This document shows positions 36,614 to 55,015 of a stretch of 64,000 bases of DNA, piece by piece (position 1 is the first letter of the stretch; every line of letters starts with the position of its first letter). Under the pieces are notes generated by a model, which saw only the letters and a list, made by a program, of their open reading frames with translations, made no database searches and was not told the origin of the DNA. Source of the stretch: Chitinophagales bacterium (GTDB lineage Bacteria > Bacteroidota > Bacteroidia > Chitinophagales > LD1); NCBI GenBank assembly GCA_016786765.1, contig JAEUUZ010000022.1, positions 34,443-98,442 of the forward strand, given 5' to 3'. Position numbers and translations under genes: made by a program.

Positions 36614-36627
36614 TGACAAAATACTTT

Positions 36628-36713
36628 TTTGGGCGTTTTAACGGGCTTTCCGTTCCAATCTGCGGCAATAAGAATTGCCGCAGGATTTCCACTGCAATCC
36701 CTAACGCGGCATT
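36628..36713 (+). repeat. About 85-bp dispersed element, copy 1
   Basis: GGGCTTTCCGTTCCAATC-TGCGGCAAT..ATTGCCGCA-GGATTTCCACTGCAATCCCTAACGCGGCATT; near-identical to 39738-39823. Confidence 0.85.
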
Positions 36714-36732
36714 CAGCATGCATTTACTATTT

Positions 36733-36867
36733 ATTGATTTAAGATGAGTTGATTTAAGATGTATTGATTTAAGATATATTGATTTAAGATGTATTGATTT
36801 AAGATGTATTGATTTAAGATGTATTGATTTAAGATATATTGATTTAAGATATATTGATTTAAGCTGT
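36733..36867. repeat. Tandem repeat, 9 x 15 bp (consensus ATTGATTTAAGATRT)
   Basis: Nine consecutive units counted directly, with no spacers. Confidence 0.95.
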
Positions 36868-36900
36868 AAGAATTTGACATTGGACATTGCTCTTTAGAAC

Positions 36901-36926
36901 GTCATTCCCGCGGAGGCGGGAATCTC
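36901..36926. repeat. REP-like palindrome GTCATTCCCGCGGAGGCGGGAATCTC
   Basis: ATTCCCGC...GCGGGAAT stem. Related GTCA(T/C)TTCGA...GAGAA(A/G)TCTC elements at 38894-38971 and 54430-54505. Confidence 0.7.
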
Positions 36927-39649: not shown

Positions 39650-39737
39650 CTCTTTTAACGTTTTTTCATCTGGCGCAAGAATGCAGGGTTGGTTTTCGGT
39701 TGGAACTCTTTGCCACAATAGAAAAATTGTGTGCATT

Positions 39738-39823
39738 TTTTTGGCGTTTTACGGGCTTTTCGTTGCAATCTGCGCCAATAAGAATTGCCGCAGGATTTCC
39801 ACTGCAATCCCTAACGCGGCATT
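39738..39823 (+). repeat. About 85-bp dispersed element, copy 2
   Basis: Near-identical to 36628-36713. Confidence 0.85.
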
Positions 39824-39860
39824 GAGGTTCATTGGAAGTGTTGTTATCAATGAAAAATGG

Positions 39861-42475: not shown

Positions 42476-45400
42476 TTATGCTTTTTCAATTATCGCTATT
42501 TCTTCTTTGCTCAACTCGTAAAGACTATAAACCAAATGGTCTATTTGTCTTTCTAAATCTTTTGCATTGGCATTATTATTTAATTTCTTCTCTTTCATTA
42601 CTAGTTTAACCTTTTCTAGAATTGCATTTTCTAGATTATAGTCAACTGTTTTTGGTAATGGAAACGGATTTAAATAATTGGTCTTAAATGTTCTAGCATC
42701 TCCTTGTAATGTGTCGCCAGTAGTTTTAAGAAACCACCAAAGTAATTTTGAATTAGCTATTGCCAATAGATACTCGTAACTCTCTTTTGTTTCTTCTTTT
42801 TTAACCCAACTATATGCTTTCGTGGTATGATATAGGTTTTCGTGATTTAAAGTTACATTCGGATGGTTGGCACAAATTTCCATTGAAGAAAGTTTTGGTT
42901 GCTCAAACTTGTTTAGGTTTTTAGGATAAATGTAAGTATGCCAATGTTCCATTTTTCCTGCCTTCCCACTTTCTCTTTCTTTAAATATGTTTTCGTGGTC
43001 AATTACATATTGATATGTTTTCGGAAACTTTTCTTTTATCTCTTCAATGCTAATTATTTCTGCATTTCCATTAACTATTTTGTATGGGAAAAACACAAAG
43101 CGATTAGTTGTTAAATAACTGTAGCGTTGCACATCTTTACCCATTAAAAATGGCTTAAACAACTCTTTTTCTAGCTCGTATTCTTTACCACTAATTGGAA
43201 CTCGTAATTTAAAACGTATGTTATCAAGAATTTCTAAAACATACAATTCATCTCTACTTGTTTGTAATCCCACAAAGATACCTTCAAAGGCATCAGAAAA
43301 TAGTTTTGACTTAGTGTAAATTTTCTCAAATACATTAAATCCCAATTTAGCATCAAATAATATCCATTGGTTAGTGCCATACAAAGCCGAAGCTTTTTCA
43401 ATCATCTCATATGTTATAAAAGTGTAAAGAGATGGTTGCAACATTAAATTCTTAAAGTCTGATTTGAAAGGGAAGCGTTGAAAATAAAATCCTTTACTTG
43501 GCTTCTTACTAAATTGGGCAACACAAGTATAGGTATCAGCATCTTCAAATACCATATTTGCACCAAAGTGCGCAATTGTATCGATAAACTGACCTGTTTT
43601 TAGATAATCCCTAAAGACTTCAGAAGAGGAAGCATTAAAGAATTTGTGAGGGAAAATATAAGCGTTATTGCTTGTTTTTCTTGAAATATTTACTGCTAAT
43701 TCAAAGAATATATTTGCTATGTCGTATGCAGCTTTTGCATTTTTGTATTGTGACTCGTAATAGATTTTTTGTTTTGGTTGTGATGCTTGTATTTCTTGTA
43801 CTCTCATATAAGGAGGATTTCCAATCACCACGTCAAATCCCACAAAATCTCCAATATCATTTAGCACTTCAGGGAATTCAAACCGCCATTCAAATGCGTT
43901 TTCAAAAATTTTGTTGGATTTTATTTCTTCTATTTCGACTTTTAATTTTTGCACCTCGCCCCATAATTTCTCTTCTCGTTCTTTGGCTTTTTTCTTGTCT
44001 GCTTTTGAGCCATATGTCGCTGCATCTTCTTTAAAAATACTAGGAGCTACTAAAACGCCATAATCATATTCTAACTTCACCAATTTTTGAATCTTAGGGT
44101 CGTTTCGCGCTATCTCACTTCTAAAATCAGATTTTATATCTGCAATCAAACGCTCCATTTCTCTTTTCTGTTCCTTGCTTTCAGCGTTCCTATAAGTGTC
44201 AACGGCTATACGGTAAGTATCGATTGTCCACTTACTTTTTTTAAGCGCTTGCTTCAAATCAGCATCAATAGCAAAGCGGCTTACTAATGAGTTACCGCAT
44301 TTTATATTGATGTCGATGTTTGGAAGTGTTTCTAATTCTGTGTGGTTTTTGTAATAGGCATTTTTCAATAGCTCAATCCATAAACGTAAGCGACAAATTT
44401 TTACTGAGTTGGGATTGATGTCCACCCCAAAAAGACAGTTTTCAATAATGGTTTGCTTTTCGTGGAAAAGGGTTTCTTGAATGCGCTGACTTTCCTTGTT
44501 TGTAGGGTTGTAGTCGAATAGTTCGCCTTCTTCGTCTATAACAATCAGTTCATCGTTCACCACTTCAACATGGTATTCCTTTAGTCGTTTGCCTGTTCGG
44601 TCTTGTAAGATTTTCAGGTCGTTTTTAACCGCAATCATTTCATTAAGTGCCGAAACTAAAAAGTGCCCGGAACCTACAGCAGGGTCACAAATTTTGATGC
44701 TGTTTACAATTTCGTTGGCTTCTTTGCGGTCTTCAATTTTATCGTATAATTCTTGAATGCTTGTGCAACTCCATTTTTTAGTTTCGTTAAATTTCTGTAT
44801 TACCGCTTTGCGAATAGTTTCCTTGCACATATACATGGTAATGAACCCCGGTGTAAAGAATGAACCGTCTTTGTAGCCATTTATTTTCTCAAAGATTAAG
44901 CCGAGAACAGAAGCATTGATCAATGATTTATTATCTTCTTGAATTTCTTCTGAACCTTCGCTTGTAAAGTCGTAAGCGTTTAAGAATTCAAACAAATATT
45001 CTAATGTATTAATACTTCCGGTTCGTTTTTTGCCTTGTTCGTTTTTGAGAACGGTAGATGGAAAAACAGGAATTGTTTTATCATCTTTCAAGTTGCTGAT
45101 AATCAAAGTTACTTGCTCAATTTCGGTAGGTTCAAATAGTGAACTGTTTAAGTAAGGAACCTTTTCAAATGCTTTTTTTACGTCTTGGTTCCTATCGTCA
45201 TACTTACGCGCCAGCACTTGGAAAAACAAACTGTTTAAATCGTCATAGTTTTTTATTTTATCTAAACTTAGAAAGGCATACGATTTGTCGCCTTTGTGAT
45301 AAGTGAGCAATTGAGCTTCCAACAATTTAAGAAACAAAATTCTGTTTATCCAAGTAATGCTTAATTCAAGTCCCACATTGAATAACCGTTCTTGTTGTGT

Positions 45401-46330
45401 GTTTCCAAATTGGCTTGGTTTTTCTAAGCGGTTTATTTTGTCTAAGCTATCGAGCTGAATGATTGTATCTTCAAGAATACTACCCGAATTGCGTTCACCT
45501 TCTTTGTTTCGTTCAATTAGTTTTTTGCTTCCCTCTTTGGTTTCGGTTAAGCCAATAATGTGGAGCAACTCGCTGTAAAAGCGCTTATCAAGACTATTGC
45601 TATCGTTAGTAAATGGAAGTTTTAAAAGATGCTCTGGCGATAACAGTTTGAATAAAGAAATTAACGAATTATCGTCTGCTTTGTCGGCATTGCGAAGCGC
45701 TTTTTGATAGTCCTGAATATTGAAGTATGTAAATTCAATTTCAACTTTGATGGTGTCAATAAATGGCTCAGCAATTTGTTTGTAGAAAAAATCGGTTTTA
45801 GTATCAGCTAAACGCCCACCTTCAAAGTCGTTGAATTGCTTCACCAAGTTTTTATTTTGGGCAAAAAGTCTGTCGAATAGGGTAGCATCAAAAATGAACC
45901 ATTCGTTTATGTTGGTCGCCACCAAATATTTTACTTCAAGATTTTTGTGTGTTATTCTTTCTCGTAAGTAGTAAAGCACTAATTCCTGAAACGCTTTCGC
46001 ATTCATTTTTTTAGTGCTAATCATTTCCGTTTTGTTGGTCGGTTTTTTAGCTTCAATAATTACACCCACGGAACTTTTAGCCGAATTTCCATTATGAATA
46101 ACAAGGTCGTTTCGGCCTTTGGTATTAACGAAATGATTAGGGTCGTAATAAGTTTTCTTTAAAAAGTCAATCACCAGGTTTTTATGGAACTCTTCGCTTT
46201 CGGTGTCGTTTGTACTGTCGAGTAAAGCAATTAGATTAGTCTTGAACCCTTCAATTTCAGACCTGTTCGGTTTAACTTTTAGAAAGGCTTTGTTGAGCGC
46301 TTTTTTGGGTTTCAATTCTTTTAATTCCAT
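42476..46330 (-). CDS. Type IIG restriction-modification enzyme (fused endonuclease + adenine MTase + TRD; Eco57I/TaqI-C-like)
   Basis: PD-(D/E)xK-like NDLVI...IIEAKK; SAM motif ICDPAVGSGHFL; catalytic GNPPY; C-terminal TRD. ATG at 46330 preferred over GTG at 46441. Confidence 0.92.
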   Translation of the reverse strand: MELKELKPKKALNKAFLKVKPNRSEIEGFKTNLIALLDSTNDTESEEFHKNLVIDFLKKTYYDPNHFVNTKGRNDLVIHNGNSAKSSVGVIIEAKKPTNKTEMISTKKMNAKAFQELVLYYLRERITHKNLEVKYLVATNINEWFIFDATLFDRLFAQNKNLVKQFNDFEGGRLADTKTDFFYKQIAEPFIDTIKVEIEFTYFNIQDYQKALRNADKADDNSLISLFKLLSPEHLLKLPFTNDSNSLDKRFYSELLHIIGLTETKEGSKKLIERNKEGERNSGSILEDTIIQLDSLDKINRLEKPSQFGNTQQERLFNVGLELSITWINRILFLKLLEAQLLTYHKGDKSYAFLSLDKIKNYDDLNSLFFQVLARKYDDRNQDVKKAFEKVPYLNSSLFEPTEIEQVTLIISNLKDDKTIPVFPSTVLKNEQGKKRTGSINTLEYLFEFLNAYDFTSEGSEEIQEDNKSLINASVLGLIFEKINGYKDGSFFTPGFITMYMCKETIRKAVIQKFNETKKWSCTSIQELYDKIEDRKEANEIVNSIKICDPAVGSGHFLVSALNEMIAVKNDLKILQDRTGKRLKEYHVEVVNDELIVIDEEGELFDYNPTNKESQRIQETLFHEKQTIIENCLFGVDINPNSVKICRLRLWIELLKNAYYKNHTELETLPNIDINIKCGNSLVSRFAIDADLKQALKKSKWTIDTYRIAVDTYRNAESKEQKREMERLIADIKSDFRSEIARNDPKIQKLVKLEYDYGVLVAPSIFKEDAATYGSKADKKKAKEREEKLWGEVQKLKVEIEEIKSNKIFENAFEWRFEFPEVLNDIGDFVGFDVVIGNPPYMRVQEIQASQPKQKIYYESQYKNAKAAYDIANIFFELAVNISRKTSNNAYIFPHKFFNASSSEVFRDYLKTGQFIDTIAHFGANMVFEDADTYTCVAQFSKKPSKGFYFQRFPFKSDFKNLMLQPSLYTFITYEMIEKASALYGTNQWILFDAKLGFNVFEKIYTKSKLFSDAFEGIFVGLQTSRDELYVLEILDNIRFKLRVPISGKEYELEKELFKPFLMGKDVQRYSYLTTNRFVFFPYKIVNGNAEIISIEEIKEKFPKTYQYVIDHENIFKERESGKAGKMEHWHTYIYPKNLNKFEQPKLSSMEICANHPNVTLNHENLYHTTKAYSWVKKEETKESYEYLLAIANSKLLWWFLKTTGDTLQGDARTFKTNYLNPFPLPKTVDYNLENAILEKVKLVMKEKKLNNNANAKDLERQIDHLVYSLYELSKEEIAIIEKA

Positions 46331-46419
46331 AGTATTTAATGTTCCTTCTTTGGCTGGGTAAAATAAGTTTTTTATTGTGAAACGTTTTGAGTGTATTATA
46401 AAAGGTGATTTTTCCTCCT

Positions 46420-46445
46420 TTGGTTGGTGTTCCGCCACCAACCAA
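46420..46445. repeat. REP-like palindrome TTGGTTGGTG-TTCCGC-CACCAACCAA
   Basis: Perfect 10-bp stem. Identical core at 47377-47398, inverted variant at 50800-50825, variant at 37668-37690. Confidence 0.85.
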
Positions 46446-46610
46446 AACTAAAGCGGCACAATTTAGCCAACCACAATCCTAAAAAAAACTTGCACTATTT
46501 TAAAGACGAAGAAAGTTAGAAAGCAGCCCCACTACTCGCTTGCCGTGGAAAGGCTCCTTTCGTGGAGCTGTTTCAGTATGTTTTACTTTGTAGTTGACCC
46601 CTTCGTAAAT

Positions 46611-47308: not shown

Positions 47309-47428
47309 TGGATTTAGGGTTAAAGGGTTAACTAATTAATGCTCAATTATAAATAATATTATTTACACTTCCCTTAGGTTGGTGTTCCGCCACCAACCAA
47401 AACCCACTCCAAATCTAAGCCGGTTTAC

Positions 47429-47732: not shown

Positions 47733-48218
47733 TTATGGTGTGGTTGTTTCCGTTGTAGACCCGCCTTGGTTAGCAAATCTCGATTTTAACAAATCGTAAA
47801 TGGTATCGGCACCCGATACACCTGCATTCGCTGCCGCCTCAAAATTACGGTAGGCTGCCAATGCTGATACATAGGCTTCGCTTCCAGCTAATAATTGGGT
47901 ATCGCTAATGCGTTCTGCGAGTTGGTTTACAATTGTATAGATCTCATCGAGTTGCACAAAGAGGGTCATGTCTTTTTGCATTTCTGCCACATTAAAGTAG
48001 GCAGGCAATAAGGTTGGGTTATTCACCATCGAGTTAATGGCATCTTCGGTAAAGGCTTTGTTGGAAACATTGATTTTAGGCAATGCAGTTCGCTCTTCTA
48101 CCGTTAAGCCTACTAAAAAGGGCATATTGGTTTGAATGGTTTGAATAGCTGTTTTTACAGCGGTGATTTGTGCCGCAGTCATAGTAATGCTGAGGCGGTT
48201 GTTGGTGATGTTCGCCAT
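47733..48218 (-). CDS. Conserved helical hypothetical protein (161 aa)
   Basis: MPFLVGLTVEER..LPKI...LPAYF...DTQLLAGSEAY..AL..Y resembles a widespread uncharacterised family as I recall it. ATG at 48218 preferred. Confidence 0.8.
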   Translation of the reverse strand: MANITNNRLSITMTAAQITAVKTAIQTIQTNMPFLVGLTVEERTALPKINVSNKAFTEDAINSMVNNPTLLPAYFNVAEMQKDMTLFVQLDEIYTIVNQLAERISDTQLLAGSEAYVSALAAYRNFEAAANAGVSGADTIYDLLKSRFANQGGSTTETTTP

Positions 48219-48453
48219 AGTAATTGGTTTTGTTGTGCCTACTCTTTGATCCCCTTTTCGGCATCCGGGGTTATTTATTTTGCAATAGGGTGAAGGCAAA
48301 CAGGACGCTTACCTACGTGAAATAAAACTAAAATGGGTTTATGAAAAAAACAAGCGAGTTTGGGTTAGGGGAGGGGCAAGGGTGTGGGGTAAAACTTAGC
48401 TCAAACTTAGAATTGAATATAGTTATAGCCATTAAGGCTACCCCTACATTTTC

Positions 48454-48699: not shown

Positions 48700-50007
48700 A
48701 TGAGACTTTTCGACAATTATCTTAACGGACTTAATGATGTGCTATCAAGAAAAGTAGCAATAACACCGAAACTACTACAAGAGCAGAGGATGTTTAGCAA
48801 TGACTTTCAAAAAGGAGTTAATCCAACGCCAATAAACGAAAGCATACAAAATTTTCCTGCTGCAATTGAAGGGCCCAAAGTACTATTCTCGTATGATAAA
48901 AGATTTCTTGAAGATAAATTTGGGATTAATCCACATTCATTTACATCTATAGCAATCGGCCCACACCCTGACTTTAAAGAATTGGCAGATACAAATTATA
49001 TCAACCATCATTGTGTTTCTGTTTTTGTAGATATAAAGGGCTCGACAAGACTTATTGAAAAATACACTTTACTTGAAGTAAGACTTATAAAAGACTCATT
49101 GTTAACATTGGCAATACAGGTTGCTAACCAATTTGGCGGTCACGTTCATAGACTTCAAGGAGATGGTATTTTTCTTCAATTTGTAAGACGTAACAAAAAT
49201 GAAAATGATGCAATTATTAACGCTTTAAACGCATCGTCAATTTTGACACAATTTGTAACAAAAGACCTTGCAGAGATTATGAAACAGTATGAATTGCGCC
49301 CATTAAAGATAAGAGTTGGTATTGACTTTGGGAATACCGAGCAAGTATTATGGTCATATTATGGCATCCCTGGTTGTAATGAGTTAACCACCACAAGCTT
49401 ACATACTGATATGGCGGCTAAACTTCAATCAAAAGCTCATGATAATAGTATTTTAATTGGTGGAAATATAAAAGAGAAGTTGGATTTAAAGACGGATTTT
49501 TATAGTATATATGAAACTGAAGATAGCAAAGAAAAAGTATTCTACATTTCCAACCAGTTTACTTATAAATTTTACGTTTTTAATTGGCAGGATTATTTGG
49601 TTTCACTTCCTTATATGGGAAAAAGTAGTGATGGAAAGACACTTGAAGTGAGAGAAAAACAAGTCCAAATTGAATGTTACATTTCAGATGAAAACGGAAG
49701 CAATTATGAAAAATATTTTCCCAATTCCCGTTCAATACCTAAGGGCAAAAAGATTATATTTCATTTGAAGCGTGGCAGTTCTTTGTATATAAAACAATCT
49801 TATGAGAAGATAGAATGGTATGCATATAATTCAGGGCAAGAAGCAGAAAGCAAAAATATGGCTCAACATGACTTTAATAAATCAAACCATGATAAAGTAT
49901 CTTGTGAGACATCAGCAGCTTATCTTGGACACCATTATGTGGAGTGCAAAATAATTACTAACCATAATGGGACAGAGAAATTGACATTCCCAATATTTGT
50001 TCAGTAA
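48700..50007 (+). CDS. pycC: Pycsar pyrimidine nucleotide cyclase with AGS-C-like C-terminal domain
   Basis: Class III cyclase fold FVDIKGSTRL, HRLQGDG, IRVGIDFG, and TDMAAKLQ in place of the canonical NxAARL; C-terminal beta-rich domain; followed by a TM effector gene. Confidence 0.85.
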   Translation: MRLFDNYLNGLNDVLSRKVAITPKLLQEQRMFSNDFQKGVNPTPINESIQNFPAAIEGPKVLFSYDKRFLEDKFGINPHSFTSIAIGPHPDFKELADTNYINHHCVSVFVDIKGSTRLIEKYTLLEVRLIKDSLLTLAIQVANQFGGHVHRLQGDGIFLQFVRRNKNENDAIINALNASSILTQFVTKDLAEIMKQYELRPLKIRVGIDFGNTEQVLWSYYGIPGCNELTTTSLHTDMAAKLQSKAHDNSILIGGNIKEKLDLKTDFYSIYETEDSKEKVFYISNQFTYKFYVFNWQDYLVSLPYMGKSSDGKTLEVREKQVQIECYISDENGSNYEKYFPNSRSIPKGKKIIFHLKRGSSLYIKQSYEKIEWYAYNSGQEAESKNMAQHDFNKSNHDKVSCETSAAYLGHHYVECKIITNHNGTEKLTFPIFVQ

Positions 50008-50116
50008 ATGTCTTAAAAAACACTTCTCTGATTTAGACTAATTTACAGGGAATTGTTTCGAAATCGCAACTTAATTCAGTATCAAATTTTGGATGTAACT
50101 TAAAACCAAATATACT

Positions 50117-50629
50117 ATGGACGAAATAAAAAAAAATCAAAATCTGAACAATCCGAAGCCAGTTGGAGAGACGCCAGAGGGCTTTGGAAAAGGTGTTAAT
50201 GACTACTTCAATCACTACGTAACTGTAGCTGATGCAAAAGCAGGAGCTATATTGGCAGCAAATTTTATTTTGCTAGGAGGTTTAATAGATATTAGTTTAT
50301 GCGATTGCATTTTAGTTCCTTATTTATTGTCCGGTATTGCAAGTATAGCATCAATTATCTTCTGTGGTATCGTTCTATATCCAAGATTAGCAAAAGCAGA
50401 AAAGGGGTTTATCTTTTGGGAAAATATTAAAAGTTACAACTCAATTAATGAGTACTTAAATGATGTTCGACAACTAGACATTCCTAAAGTTGAGGAGGAA
50501 TATGCAATGCAAAATTGGCATGTTAGTAAAATACTTTCAAGTAAGAACAAGTATGTTAGAATAGCTATCACTTTATTTATTATTTCATTGATTTTTTTTG
50601 TTGTAACATTTCTTCTTAAAAAATTATGA
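50117..50629 (+). CDS. pycTM: Pycsar transmembrane effector (PycTM/DUF5706-like)
   Basis: NHYVTVADAKAGAIL, TM helices, LYPRL, FIFWENI, QNWHVSKILSSKNKYVR. Confidence 0.85.
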   Translation: MDEIKKNQNLNNPKPVGETPEGFGKGVNDYFNHYVTVADAKAGAILAANFILLGGLIDISLCDCILVPYLLSGIASIASIIFCGIVLYPRLAKAEKGFIFWENIKSYNSINEYLNDVRQLDIPKVEEEYAMQNWHVSKILSSKNKYVRIAITLFIISLIFFVVTFLLKKL

Positions 50630-50942
50630 TATGCCTGTATGAAATGATGAATGTTATCAAACATTAATGGGGAAAATTTATTCAATTACTGTTGGTCTTG
50701 ATGATAGAATTGAAAAGGTAATTGATGGTCGGGTTGCTCCGGCACTTGAAGAAATTGCAATTGGCTCCGGTAGGAAAATGCTAGCAGCAACATAGGTTTT
50801 TGGTTGGAGTCGGAACACCAAACAACGGCTAAAACTTAACTACAATTCATGATCTTCATAGATTTTCAGTCAATTAGGAACGTATATATTTAATAATTAT
50901 CACTAGATTTATTGCATTTAGTTAATTATAGAAATTACAAAT

Positions 50943-52475
50943 TTGGAAGTACAACAAATTTTAGCATTTAGGGGGATAATTTTATCAATGGTATCAATTA
51001 CAACCAGCATTCTAATTGCTGAGATTTGGTATAGATATTATTCAATTCGAAAAAAAAACGAAAGTGATCTTGGGCTATTTTATATGGCTTTTGCATTATT
51101 GATTTGGGGGATTTCGGAGGGCTTAATGCTATTATTACATAATAGCAAATATATCCAGTTGGTAACTTTAGCTAAGCCCTTGTTTTCTACGGTTAATAGT
51201 TATTATTTAATAATAGGATTGGGGTATTTTGAAATGACTCCGCAATGGTTAAAGTATAGCAATCAAAATACTAAACATCTTTTTTTGTATAGTGCAATAA
51301 CTACTTTTTTATTTACAGTAATTTTTTTTTTAAAGGGAAACTATGATTATGTAAGTATTCCAGATTTTGTTTATTCAATTTGTACTGTTACATTAATTGT
51401 TATTGTTTTTTTTAAAACATTTATAAGCAGGGGGTTATATCTTTTAGCTGTTTTTTCAGTGATAGTAATGTTCATGTTATTACTAGCACAACCATTTTTG
51501 AATTTTTTTTACGGACAGGGAAAAGAGACAGAATGTCTAATTTTAGATTTTTTTAGTCGACTTTCATTTATAATAATAATATGTTTACTTGCTTATAGTT
51601 GGGCACAAAAAAAACTTTTAAACGTCTCTGATAAACTTGAAAATTTAGAGACGAATGTTTCAAATTTAACACGTGAAAAGGATAAACTAGTAAAAGAAGA
51701 GCGTGAGATTTTTTGGAAAGGAGTTGCTTTTACTGCTGCACATAAACTTGGTAATCCTGTAGAGGCTTTGTCATTAAATTGGGTAAATGTTAGTGAAGAA
51801 TTAGAAGCTAGGAATATTAAGAAGGTTCTTCTATATCTTAAGGATATGAAAGATTCAATTCATGATATGAAACAATTACTTGGCGATTTTAAACAATTGG
51901 GTTGGATCGAAAATTTTGAAATGAAAACAGTTAATATTGTTCCAGTTTTGACTAAAATAGAAAGGCAACTTGTTAGAACAGATATTGAATTCACATTTAA
52001 TAATAATGTCCAAACACAGAAGCCTGTTTTTTTAAAAAAAGAAGAAGATGGTGTTGCAGTAATTAGTAGGTTAGATTTCACGGATGAAGTTTTTGTAGAT
52101 GTTGATCAACTTAGATTCAAGATGTGTTTTGACGAGTTAATTCAAAATTCTCAACATTTTTTTAAAGCTGATTGTGAACACAAAATAATTACAATTGATA
52201 TAAATGATTATAAAGATGATTTAACGGAAAGGAACCTAAAGAATAATTTAAAATATGTATGTATTGATTACCGAGACAATGGTGAGGGTATCCCATTAGA
52301 GAGAAAGGAATCAATATTTATGCCTTTCGAAACTACTTATGCTCAAGGTACTGGATTAGGGTTACCTACAGTAAGAAAAATTATTGAACTTCATGGTGGT
52401 ATTATATACGAATGCGGTATACATGGAGATGGTGCACATTTCAAGTTAGTTTTACCAAAATCTATTAGTTTATGA
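50943..52475 (+). CDS. Sensor histidine kinase with about 7 N-terminal TM helices
   Basis: H-box AAHKLGNP, N-box ELIQNS, G1 DNGEGIP, F/G2 FMPFETT..QGTGLGL. Confidence 0.9.
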   Translation: MEVQQILAFRGIILSMVSITTSILIAEIWYRYYSIRKKNESDLGLFYMAFALLIWGISEGLMLLLHNSKYIQLVTLAKPLFSTVNSYYLIIGLGYFEMTPQWLKYSNQNTKHLFLYSAITTFLFTVIFFLKGNYDYVSIPDFVYSICTVTLIVIVFFKTFISRGLYLLAVFSVIVMFMLLLAQPFLNFFYGQGKETECLILDFFSRLSFIIIICLLAYSWAQKKLLNVSDKLENLETNVSNLTREKDKLVKEEREIFWKGVAFTAAHKLGNPVEALSLNWVNVSEELEARNIKKVLLYLKDMKDSIHDMKQLLGDFKQLGWIENFEMKTVNIVPVLTKIERQLVRTDIEFTFNNNVQTQKPVFLKKEEDGVAVISRLDFTDEVFVDVDQLRFKMCFDELIQNSQHFFKADCEHKIITIDINDYKDDLTERNLKNNLKYVCIDYRDNGEGIPLERKESIFMPFETTYAQGTGLGLPTVRKIIELHGGIIYECGIHGDGAHFKLVLPKSISL

Positions 52476-53566
52476 AAAAGAAAATATTAATTGTTGATGA
52501 TGAAGATACTTTACGCAAAGGCTACAAAAACTATTTTGAAAGGCATTTACGTGATGAATGTGATTTTTTTCAAGCTTCAAATGAAGATGAAGCGTTTCTA
52601 TTAATTGATTCTAATGAATTTGATGTTATTGTCACCGATTTACGAATGAAAGTTGCGTCATCAGGTATATTAGTTTTAAAGTATGCAAAGAAAAAGGATC
52701 CAAGTGTTTGTGTAATAATTGTAACCGCATATCCTACAGACTTAAATAAAAATCAAGCGTATGAATTGGGTGTATATGATTGTATAACTAAGGCTCAACC
52801 TGACCAAGAAACTGAAATATATGTGAAAGAGATGCTTTATAAAATAAGGAATGCAATTTATGTTCGAGATACTCTTAAAAGATTATTGGAGCATGAATTA
52901 AAACTACATTACTTCAGACGTTATTTTGATCCTGAAGTTTTTGAAAGAATAATTCAGGACCCCAATTTACTTGTACCAAGTAATAAACTTATAACAATAA
53001 TTTTTTGTGACATTCGAGGTTTCTCCTCTTTAAGTGATAAGTTGAAAGCAAAGACAGATATAGTTGCAGGTTTTTTGACTGAGTTTCTCGAAGAGGTATC
53101 TTTAGTAATCTTTGACAACAAAGGTGTTTTAGATAAGTTTTTAGGAGATGGTATCCTAGCTCTATTTGGAACATTTAATAATCATGAAGATGCAAAGGGA
53201 TCCGCAGTAGATGCTGTAAATTGCGCAATGCAAATGCAACTAAAGTTTAGTCAAGTCTATAATAAATGGAAACTTGAATTTGAGAAACATACTGCAGACA
53301 AGATTGATATTGGATTAGGTTGTGGTATACATACAGGGGAAGCTTTAGTTGGTAATTTAGGAACAGAAAAACGAGACCATTTTACTGCAATTGGAGCACA
53401 TGTGAACTTAGCTGCTCGAATTGAAAGCACCGCAAAAAAAAGTGAAATTCGTATATCTCAAACAACTAAAGCTTATATTGGTAATACTTTTAATACTACT
53501 AAAATTGACACACTTCAGGCAATTAAAAACATTCCTGGAGAATATGATATATTCACAATTGGATGA
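52472..53566 (+). CDS. Response regulator receiver fused to a class III adenylate cyclase
   Basis: REC: ILIVDDE, IVTDLRM, VTAY, ITK. Cyclase: FCDIRGFS, DKFLGDG, GIHTG, FTAIGAHVNLAARIE. ATGA overlap with the kinase stop codon. Confidence 0.9.
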   Translation: MKKKILIVDDEDTLRKGYKNYFERHLRDECDFFQASNEDEAFLLIDSNEFDVIVTDLRMKVASSGILVLKYAKKKDPSVCVIIVTAYPTDLNKNQAYELGVYDCITKAQPDQETEIYVKEMLYKIRNAIYVRDTLKRLLEHELKLHYFRRYFDPEVFERIIQDPNLLVPSNKLITIIFCDIRGFSSLSDKLKAKTDIVAGFLTEFLEEVSLVIFDNKGVLDKFLGDGILALFGTFNNHEDAKGSAVDAVNCAMQMQLKFSQVYNKWKLEFEKHTADKIDIGLGCGIHTGEALVGNLGTEKRDHFTAIGAHVNLAARIESTAKKSEIRISQTTKAYIGNTFNTTKIDTLQAIKNIPGEYDIFTIG

Positions 53567-53593: not shown

Positions 53594-53742
53594 GTTTGGC
53601 GTAGTCTCCCGACTAAGTCATTGTGTAAGTTAATCTCTGATTAACATTTAAAATAGAAGAAGGGCTTTGCTTTTTTGCCATGCGGTGTATATAAATCAGA
53701 GATTTATTAACGCTGAGGCCTAGTCTGGAGACTATGCCAAAC
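53594..53742. repeat. 149-bp element with nested inverted repeats (MITE/REPIN-like)
   Basis: Outer GTTTGGCGTAGTCTCCCGACTA pairs with TAGTCTGGAGACTATGCCAAAC; inner GTTAATCTCTGATT pairs with AATCAGAGATTTATTAAC. Confidence 0.7.
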
Positions 53743-54930: not shown

Positions 54931-55015
54931 TATGCTGCGTTAGCGATTGAAGTGGACATCCTTTTGTGAGGAACGAGCAAAAGATGGAAACGGAAAGCGC
55001 GTTAAAACGCCCAAA
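54931..55015 (-). repeat. About 85-bp dispersed element, diverged copy 3 in inverted orientation
   Basis: Reverse complement reads TTTGGGCGTTTTAACGCGCTTTCCGTTTCCATC...GGATGTCCACTTCAATCGCTAACGCAGCAT. Confidence 0.75.

Follow-up and report, generated by a model that had tools for sequence, protein, structure and literature searches.

The DNA analysed here (the window) is a stretch of 64,000 nt from a Chitinophagales bacterium (assembly GCA_016786765.1, contig JAEUUZ010000022.1, positions 34,443–98,442 of the forward strand), and all coordinates below are positions within the window unless another locus is named. Its forward strand carries a gene for a sensor histidine kinase (50943–52475; an open reading frame [ORF] of 510 amino acids with a TTG start), followed by a gene for a response regulator with an adenylate cyclase output (52472–53566; an ORF of 364 amino acids with Pfam matches to both of its domains). 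The two genes are joined by a 4-bp ATGA overlap between the kinase stop and the cyclase start (52472–52475; the kinase ends in ..tta TGA, and the cyclase ATG begins at 52472), which suggests that they are translationally coupled. Upstream and on the same strand lies a Pycsar defence system, PycC then PycTM (48700–50629; identified by Pfam and PADLOC). The pycTM gene ends at 50629, leaving a spacer of 313 bp (50630–50942) before the kinase start. Guanine–cytosine (GC) content falls to 0.285–0.298 at 51–53 kb, whereas the right flank has 0.42–0.46 and the window averages about 0.40 overall. A first-pass annotation, made from the sequence alone, had described two co-oriented, ATGA-coupled frames in AT-rich DNA, 313 bp from pycTM, and the ORF coordinates, the 4-bp overlap, the position of the pycTM end, and the GC values agree with that description.

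By its domain content, the gene at 50943–52475 is a two-component sensor histidine kinase, for which phosphotransfer is predicted. Residues 388–506 match the HATPase_c domain (PF02518) with a score of 54.8 bits, where the cut-off is 26.4. None of the N, G1, F, and G2 boxes is missing, and N402, D445-x-G-x-G449, F462, and G469-x-G471-x-G473 are invariant. The predicted autophosphorylation site, His267 (codon at 51741–51743), lies in the motif AAHKLGNP and is invariant across all aligned kinases of the family. The HisKA Pfam model has no match in the window kinase at E ≤ 0.01, and its matches in relatives are sub-threshold (E-values from 6e-4 to 0.77). In the AlphaFold model, the dimerization and histidine phosphotransfer (DHp) region is formed by two long helices (residues 195–290 and 293–319). 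A comparison with PADLOC models returned no meaningful match for the kinase.

The N-terminal sensor domain of the kinase (50943–51641) consists of seven transmembrane (TM) helices with short loops, spanning approximately residues 3–218 in the hydropathy profile and in two AlphaFold models; a model of the TM part alone has a predicted local distance difference test score (pLDDT) of 81 and a predicted template-modelling score (pTM) of 0.81. A large extracytoplasmic loop is absent from this domain, and the seventh helix (TM7) runs unbroken, as one long helix, into the DHp region that carries the H-box. The seven-TM (7TM) anatomy with short loops points to sensing inside the membrane. Alignments of the 7TM family reveal invariant W29, G44, W55-G56, S82, N85, P100, D141, R163, Q183, and R206-x-SFI, and the TTG start is supported because homologues conserve residues upstream of Met16. 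The domain is rare: among 1.84 billion representative proteins, it was found in eight clusters at E ≤ 1e-10, all of them kinases of about 510 amino acids, whereas weaker matches of 350–400 amino acids have no Pfam domain and were uninformative. A Foldseek search with the 7TM domain recovered a generic bundle resembling G protein-coupled receptors and rhodopsins (template-modelling scores of 0.55–0.62; best E-value 7e-4). The rhodopsin-like light sensing that such a fold match might suggest was rejected, since TM7 does not have the Schiff-base lysine and the Foldseek matches are generic.

The protein encoded at 52472–53566 matches Response_reg (PF00072; 64.5 bits) and Guanylate_cyc (65.7 bits), and its domains are arranged as a receiver (REC; residues 5–112), a helical linker (approximately residues 125–170), and a class IIIb cyclase (residues 172–346). 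The receiver phospho-acceptor, Asp56 of the motif VIVTDLRM (codon at 52637–52639), and Thr85 are conserved in 119 of 119 homologues, and D9/D10 and K107 are likewise conserved. Structures in the PDB that match the cyclase include Spirulina CyaC (1wc0; E-value 3e-26), CyaB (3r5g), and a phytochrome-cyclase (6fht), the last of which aligns from residue 126 of the receiver-cyclase onward. The alignment with CyaC 1wc0 places all six canonical residues of the catalytic domain (52985–53509): D180 (FCDIRGF), K222 and D226 (DKFLGDG), T305 (FTAIG), and N312 and R316 (VNLAARI). D180, N312, and R316 are each conserved in all 119 homologues, K222 in 117, and T305 in 118; D226 was left out of this tally and was read from the DKFLGDG motif and the CyaC alignment. 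The Lys/Thr pair K222/T305 marks an ATP-specific class IIIb enzyme, and the receiver-cyclase is therefore predicted to make cyclic AMP (cAMP) under the control of phosphorylation. The cyclase domain also scores 84.5 bits on a PADLOC PycC model (PDLC00734). Thus, the metal-binding Asp residues and the Lys, Thr, and Asn/Arg residues that the first-pass annotation had read in the cyclase are in place, and its prediction of an intact kinase with a cAMP-forming receiver-cyclase is supported by the domains and residues of both proteins.

The receiver-cyclase has 1672 homologous matches, with 41–51 per cent identity across phyla. The homologues bear the database name 'adenylate/guanylate cyclase domain-containing response regulator', and no study of any member of the family was found in the literature searched. 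The kinase and the receiver-cyclase form a two-gene cassette that was seen in approximately 40 non-redundant loci from many phyla, with hosts in Bacteroidota, Acidobacteriota, Bradyrhizobium, Desulfobaccales, Verrucomicrobiota, Chloroflexota, and others. In nearly all loci long enough to hold both genes, a kinase with the same H-box is located immediately 5' of the receiver-cyclase, and the two genes overlap or are spaced by 1–15 bp; the exceptions are three loci (L025, L054, and L055) in which the kinase occurs without a receiver-cyclase. The close pairing of the genes in about 40 loci lends indirect support to the predicted phosphotransfer from kinase to receiver. The H-box of the family, AAHK[LI]GNP, is divergent, and the loci were retrieved by scans with this strict pattern, which gave 17 and 29 loci, so that the sample of neighbourhoods is modest. 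Word-indexed protein searches with the kinase and with a five-sequence kinase profile were swamped by generic HATPase_c proteins and yielded almost no new 7TM-type kinases.

Two types of kinase share the same core. The 7TM type is found in the window, in a Bacteroidia metagenome-assembled genome (MAG), in Fibrella, and in two metagenome lineages. The commoner type, of about 600 amino acids, has a cytoplasmic N-terminus of about 345 amino acids (e.g. L009, 10001–11035, and L028, 8202–9236, with 23 other loci). This N-terminus resembles DNPH1/Rcl 2'-deoxynucleoside-5'-phosphate N-hydrolases (profile against PDB; E-value 8e-8), with the motif D-x-S..PN..YE.G.A.A.GKP, and the DNPH1-like part is followed by a segment like the Mrr_cat nuclease (EFENLCFELLTQMGFRRVEWGK..EIDVVA..KKDPDG). 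A histidine kinase that senses nucleotides or DNA and feeds an adenylate cyclase would be unusual. When the 418 ORFs that flank the cassettes were compared all against all, the one neighbour family to recur was that of ABC-type ATPases, in three loci. Hence, the cassette lacks a conserved third gene and encodes no effector that binds cyclic nucleoside monophosphates (cNMPs).

The analysis shows how the genes are arranged, that their catalytic residues are intact, that the cassette is conserved, and that the pair is accessory and lies in an island, and it gives the statistics of the neighbourhoods. The pair is probably a horizontally acquired, self-contained two-component cAMP cassette, that is, an ordinary signalling module that has landed in a defence hotspot. 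As to what is sensed, which way regulation runs, the cAMP product, and the downstream receptors, we infer the following course of events. The 7TM kinase would sense a cue within or at the membrane, for example, a small hydrophobic ligand or the state of the bilayer, and the signal would travel via TM7 straight into the DHp helix. The kinase would then autophosphorylate on His267 and pass the phosphate to Asp56 of the receiver, whose activation, relayed through the helical linker, would switch on the dimeric class IIIb adenylate cyclase to convert ATP into cAMP. Proteins that bind cNMPs, with genes in other parts of the genome, would read the cAMP in trans. There is no cNMP-binding domain in the 64-kb window, as the first-pass annotation had also stated of an effector; the six PF00027 matches of the genome, of which five exceed the Pfam cut-off, all lie elsewhere, and the closest of them is 43 kb beyond the end of the window on the same contig.

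Immune cNMP cyclase clades are reported to be fast-evolving and set apart from physiological outgroups (preprint 10.64898/2026.08.12.744502), and the receiver-cyclase, judged by its conservation and by its best matches (CyaC and CyaB), appears to behave like the physiological group. That the pair adjoins Pycsar would reflect the arrival of both in one variable hotspot and not a joint function. Synteny with a same-genus genome (G001) extends up to 36718 and resumes from 53825, and the 17 kb between these flanks correspond to 16 kb with a type I restriction-modification (R-M) system in G001, where two DUF262/GmrSD-like genes are nested between the gene for the restriction subunit and a methylase-specificity fusion gene (L034, 10203–19184). 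In the window, a type IIG R-M enzyme (42476–46441) is also located upstream of the Pycsar system, and the kinase-cyclase pair is the right-most cargo of the 17-kb island. Different defence cargo at the same site in two species identifies the site as a defence-rich variable hotspot.

Several observations count against an ordinary signalling role. The receiver-cyclase is missing from 40 relatives at the genus, family, and order levels, as well as from a sample of 400 genomes in the phylum. The pair has a low GC content and resides in a 17-kb island, at the place where the same-genus genome has the type I R-M system and two GmrSD-like genes. Five or six cassettes of the family lie beside defence genes, and the commoner kinase variant bears the DNPH1/Rcl-like and Mrr-like nuclease N-terminus, domains of kinds that are frequent in conflict systems. 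Finally, the sequencing runs that hold the sequence are DNA metagenomes from bioreactors only, with no RNA runs among them.

The same rarity could mean that the pair serves no present function in its host and is carried in the island as decaying or silent cargo: in the protein database the pair is a singleton, it occurs in one species of the genus only, and no RNA runs contain it. We consider this very unlikely, as both frames are intact, the ATGA coupling is kept, and all catalytic and family-invariant residues, including those of the TM domain, are retained. The metagenome contigs that carry the region represent the same strain and have all of its parts, and no strain without the pair was found among them.

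The first-pass annotation had proposed to score how often homologues of the pair have defence systems in their neighbourhoods, and by this test a defence role is not supported. Defence genes were found within approximately 7–10 kb of the pair in five or six of about 24 loci with long flanks, and several of the remaining neighbourhoods are plainly housekeeping. Besides this window, the defence-adjacent loci are a metagenome lineage in which a type I R-M system has Nsn-like, GmrSD, and AAA_15 genes nested in it, a contig with HNH and AAA_15 genes and Mrr_cat and nSTAND3 genes, a genome with a type I R-M system, an AAA_15 gene, and a transposase, and an Acidobacteriota MAG with QatA 6 kb away (L024, 762–2759); there is also one further, unlocated DNA methyltransferase match. 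Elsewhere, the pair is situated within a polysaccharide cluster in Fibrella, after thiC in Bradyrhizobium (thiC/FMO), beside polyamine genes (deoxyhypusine synthase and arginine decarboxylase) in an Acidobacteriota MAG, in the order cinA-ligT-[pair]-recA-alaS in Desulfobaccales, near serS/MoxR, in a small island with an integrase beside tuf-secE-nusG, in housekeeping surroundings with an elongation factor and a RIO kinase or with Cdc48-type ATPases and HisG, and in the Bacteroidia MAG.

PADLOC searches of 290 neighbour ORFs gave few matches, with no family represented by more than two proteins, and ten large neighbour ORFs, tested blind, had no PADLOC match. Locus L052, which gene sizes had suggested to be QatABCD, was rejected because PADLOC found no match there, and the tallies for PD-T4-6 and mad6 trace to one ordinary Ser/Thr kinase in L025 that was not counted as defence. 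Most members of the family thus do not lie beside defence genes, in what is a small sample (five or six of about 24). In our judgement, this proportion is above the expectation for random genes and far below that of defence families, as expected of accessory genes borne on islands. In the Desulfobaccales locus, a protein with a metallo-beta-lactamase (MBL) fold is encoded 4.5 kb 3' of the pair (L029, 15666–16439) and carries precomputed Pfam assignments to Lactamase_B and Anti-Pycsar_Apyc1; it is probably a housekeeping MBL hydrolase.

These neighbourhoods bear on the possibility that the cassette is a stand-alone or modulatory defence alarm, in which the kinase senses a phage-induced disturbance of the membrane or envelope and cAMP induces or primes immunity genes via a cNMP-binding regulator, with no dedicated toxic effector. 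The patchy distribution, low GC content, and defence-hotspot position of the pair are consistent with such an alarm, as are the five or six of about 24 homologous loci that adjoin defence systems and the DNPH1-like and Mrr-type nuclease sensor of the major kinase variant. A purine cNMP also has an immune precedent in the cGMP of Pucsar, and preprint models favour ATP for 'Pycsar-like-4' cyclases. Nonetheless, we regard a defence alarm as unlikely: no effector or regulator is conserved beside the pair, the majority of loci are in housekeeping surroundings, the cyclase is slow-evolving and physiological-like in comparison with the reported fast-evolving immune clades, the kinase lacks a meaningful PADLOC match, and the cassette was not found in searches of phages, viral contigs, and plasmids. 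Less probable still is the broader proposal that the whole family is a mobile cAMP alarm with interchangeable sensors for infection cues, namely the GPCR-like 7TM bundle in the window and, in most relatives, the DNPH1-like nucleotide-binding domain with an Mrr-like nuclease domain. Such an alarm would prime immunity in trans, via host cNMP regulators or via neighbours such as Pycsar. Overall, we see a defence role of some kind as a minority prospect, though not a negligible one.

The adjacent Pycsar system is genuine. PycC has an AGS_C domain and scores 646 bits on PADLOC model PDLC00761, and PycTM follows it. R142 and Q144 of EaPycC are the residues that specify CTP (PMC11224242), and the window PycC has the corresponding R-x-Q before the metal Asp, in the motif RLQGDG, so that its product is probably cyclic CMP (cCMP). 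What sets the Pycsar-2 subclade apart is the combination of an AGS-C cyclase and a TM effector (preprint 10.64898/2026.08.12.744502), and the window PycC fits this subclade. The receiver-cyclase lacks pyrimidine-type base-recognition residues, and the contrast between the R-x-Q of PycC and K222/T305 leads us to predict that the two cyclases make different nucleotides. No cNMP-activated effector gene is paired with the receiver-cyclase, and the adjacent PycTM has its own PycC. The genome has four Guanylate_cyc matches in all. Two adjacent open frames on contig C37 of the window's genome (68314–69455) have weak matches to the class III cyclase model (33 and 31 bits), and a 710-amino-acid cyclase is encoded on contig C46 of this genome; these matches indicate that the organism has several cNMP sources besides the two in the window.

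The first-pass annotation had seen in the pair a candidate signalling-defence module at the side of Pycsar. Its position there, in an AT-rich and species-specific island, stands, but the approximately 40 other pairs have no detectable Pycsar nearby: BLAST searches with the window proteins found no PycC or PycTM homologue near them, and the Pfam-annotated contexts of the other loci contained neither a second cyclase nor a PycTM family member. This absence counts against the idea that the pair is an accessory of this particular Pycsar in a two-cyclase relay, in which cAMP or phosphorylation would gate PycC/PycTM, or the pair would sense membrane damage by PycTM. The four genes are co-oriented, the gap is 313 bp with no canonical terminator, and there are published hints of immune loci with several cyclases: some Pycsar-1 loci encode more than one (preprint 10.64898/2026.08.12.744502), and a CBASS DS-2 system with an essential diadenylate cyclase was validated in the DefensePredictor paper (PMC13092281). 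Immune loci can therefore hold two cyclases, which makes a relay possible in principle, while nothing beyond adjacency points to one here. Pycsar-2 systems are complete with two genes, the adenylate-type K222/T305 is unlike the R-x-Q of the adjacent PycC, and the spacer holds a degenerate copy of the kind of hairpin that separates other island genes. We consider a relay with this Pycsar highly improbable.

The pair appears from these comparisons to be an uncharacterized receiver-regulated class III adenylate cyclase with a cognate kinase, and it has points in common with several known systems. In REC-CHD regulators and in CyaC of Spirulina and Anabaena, a receiver likewise controls a class IIIb (Lys/Thr) adenylate cyclase. 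CyaC combines receiver, kinase, and cyclase in one fused protein, whereas the kinase of the pair has a gene of its own, translationally coupled to that of the cyclase, and combines a 7TM sensor with a divergent DHp region that has no HisKA Pfam match. Detocs systems comprise a kinase (DtcA), a receiver protein that acts as a buffer (DtcB), and a receiver fused to a toxic effector (DtcC). The pair resembles them in being a mobile cassette of a kinase and a receiver-fused output with some copies in defence islands, and it differs from them in that its output is a signalling cyclase instead of a toxic effector, there is no receiver-only buffer gene, and the kinase has no PADLOC match; the conserved genes number two, not three, with no receiver-only neighbour. 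With Pycsar, the pair shares the class III cyclase fold and physically adjoins a real system of this kind, but it has ATP-type residues, a receiver in the place of a phage-sensing cyclase, no partner effector in any locus, and slow evolution. The same logic and domain order (7TM, kinase, receiver, and adenylate cyclase) are present in Dictyostelium ACR (PMC3009899), which differs in being one eukaryotic polypeptide with two receivers; the likeness lies in the domain order, and no sequence kinship of the TM regions is claimed.

If the favoured reading of an ordinary signalling module in a hotspot is true, adjacency to a defence system within a hotspot is weak evidence of a defence role; the two genes of the cassette travel together into neighbourhoods of many kinds. 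The family, with its AAHK[LI]GNP H-box, strict partner of 364 amino acids, and two swappable sensors, would also be a tractable model for the gating of class III cyclases by phosphorylation. Should the pair instead serve as a defence alarm, cAMP would join cCMP, cyclic UMP (cUMP), and cyclic GMP (cGMP) as an immune-linked cyclic mononucleotide, in this case under two-component control. A family-wide mobile alarm would amount to a defence-associated signalling layer without an effector of its own.

The island contains several repeated and palindromic elements. A palindrome (TTTGGTTGGTGTTCCGCCACCAACCAAA; hairpin GGTTGGTG..CACCAACC) occurs between island genes at 46417–46448 and 47372–47403, where it folds at -18 to -19 kcal/mol, and metagenome contigs break at its first copy, as expected of a dispersed repeat. 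The degenerate hairpin copy in the pycTM-kinase spacer (50797–50828) folds weakly (-11.2 kcal/mol; z-score -1.7), which is too weak for a terminator or a cassette boundary, and both interpretations were rejected; the spacer has no Rfam match and no canonical terminator. A long imperfect palindrome with two 54-nt arms (53594–53742) is located at the right edge of the island, in the gap between the convergent cyclase and ompH genes, and its predicted RNA fold is much more stable (-58.5 kcal/mol; z-score -7.5). Its role may be that of a boundary element or of a terminator acting in both directions.

Two copies of a 91-nt element lie in direct orientation to each other (36626–36716 and 39736–39826; 89 per cent identical), and a 34-nt part of it is found inverted at 54982–55015, beyond ompH and 18.3 kb away (91 per cent complementary). 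With copies at both ends, the element brackets the whole variable island. Copies also flank the island of the same-genus genome (L034, 3081–3172, and L035, 1526–1610), and the element may mark the hotspot boundary, as a recombination or REP-like sequence. At 36692–36901, ten 15-bp units (ATTGATTTAAGATGT-like) form a tandem array that begins almost exactly where synteny with the same-genus genome stops (36718). Within the island, the DUF805b RNA motif of Rfam is matched on the reverse strand at 48236–48271 (41.2 bits against a gathering score of 35.6; E-value 4e-9), where it overlaps the annotated start of a 188-amino-acid ORF (47733–48299). This ORF probably starts at a more downstream position, and the motif would then lie in its leader.

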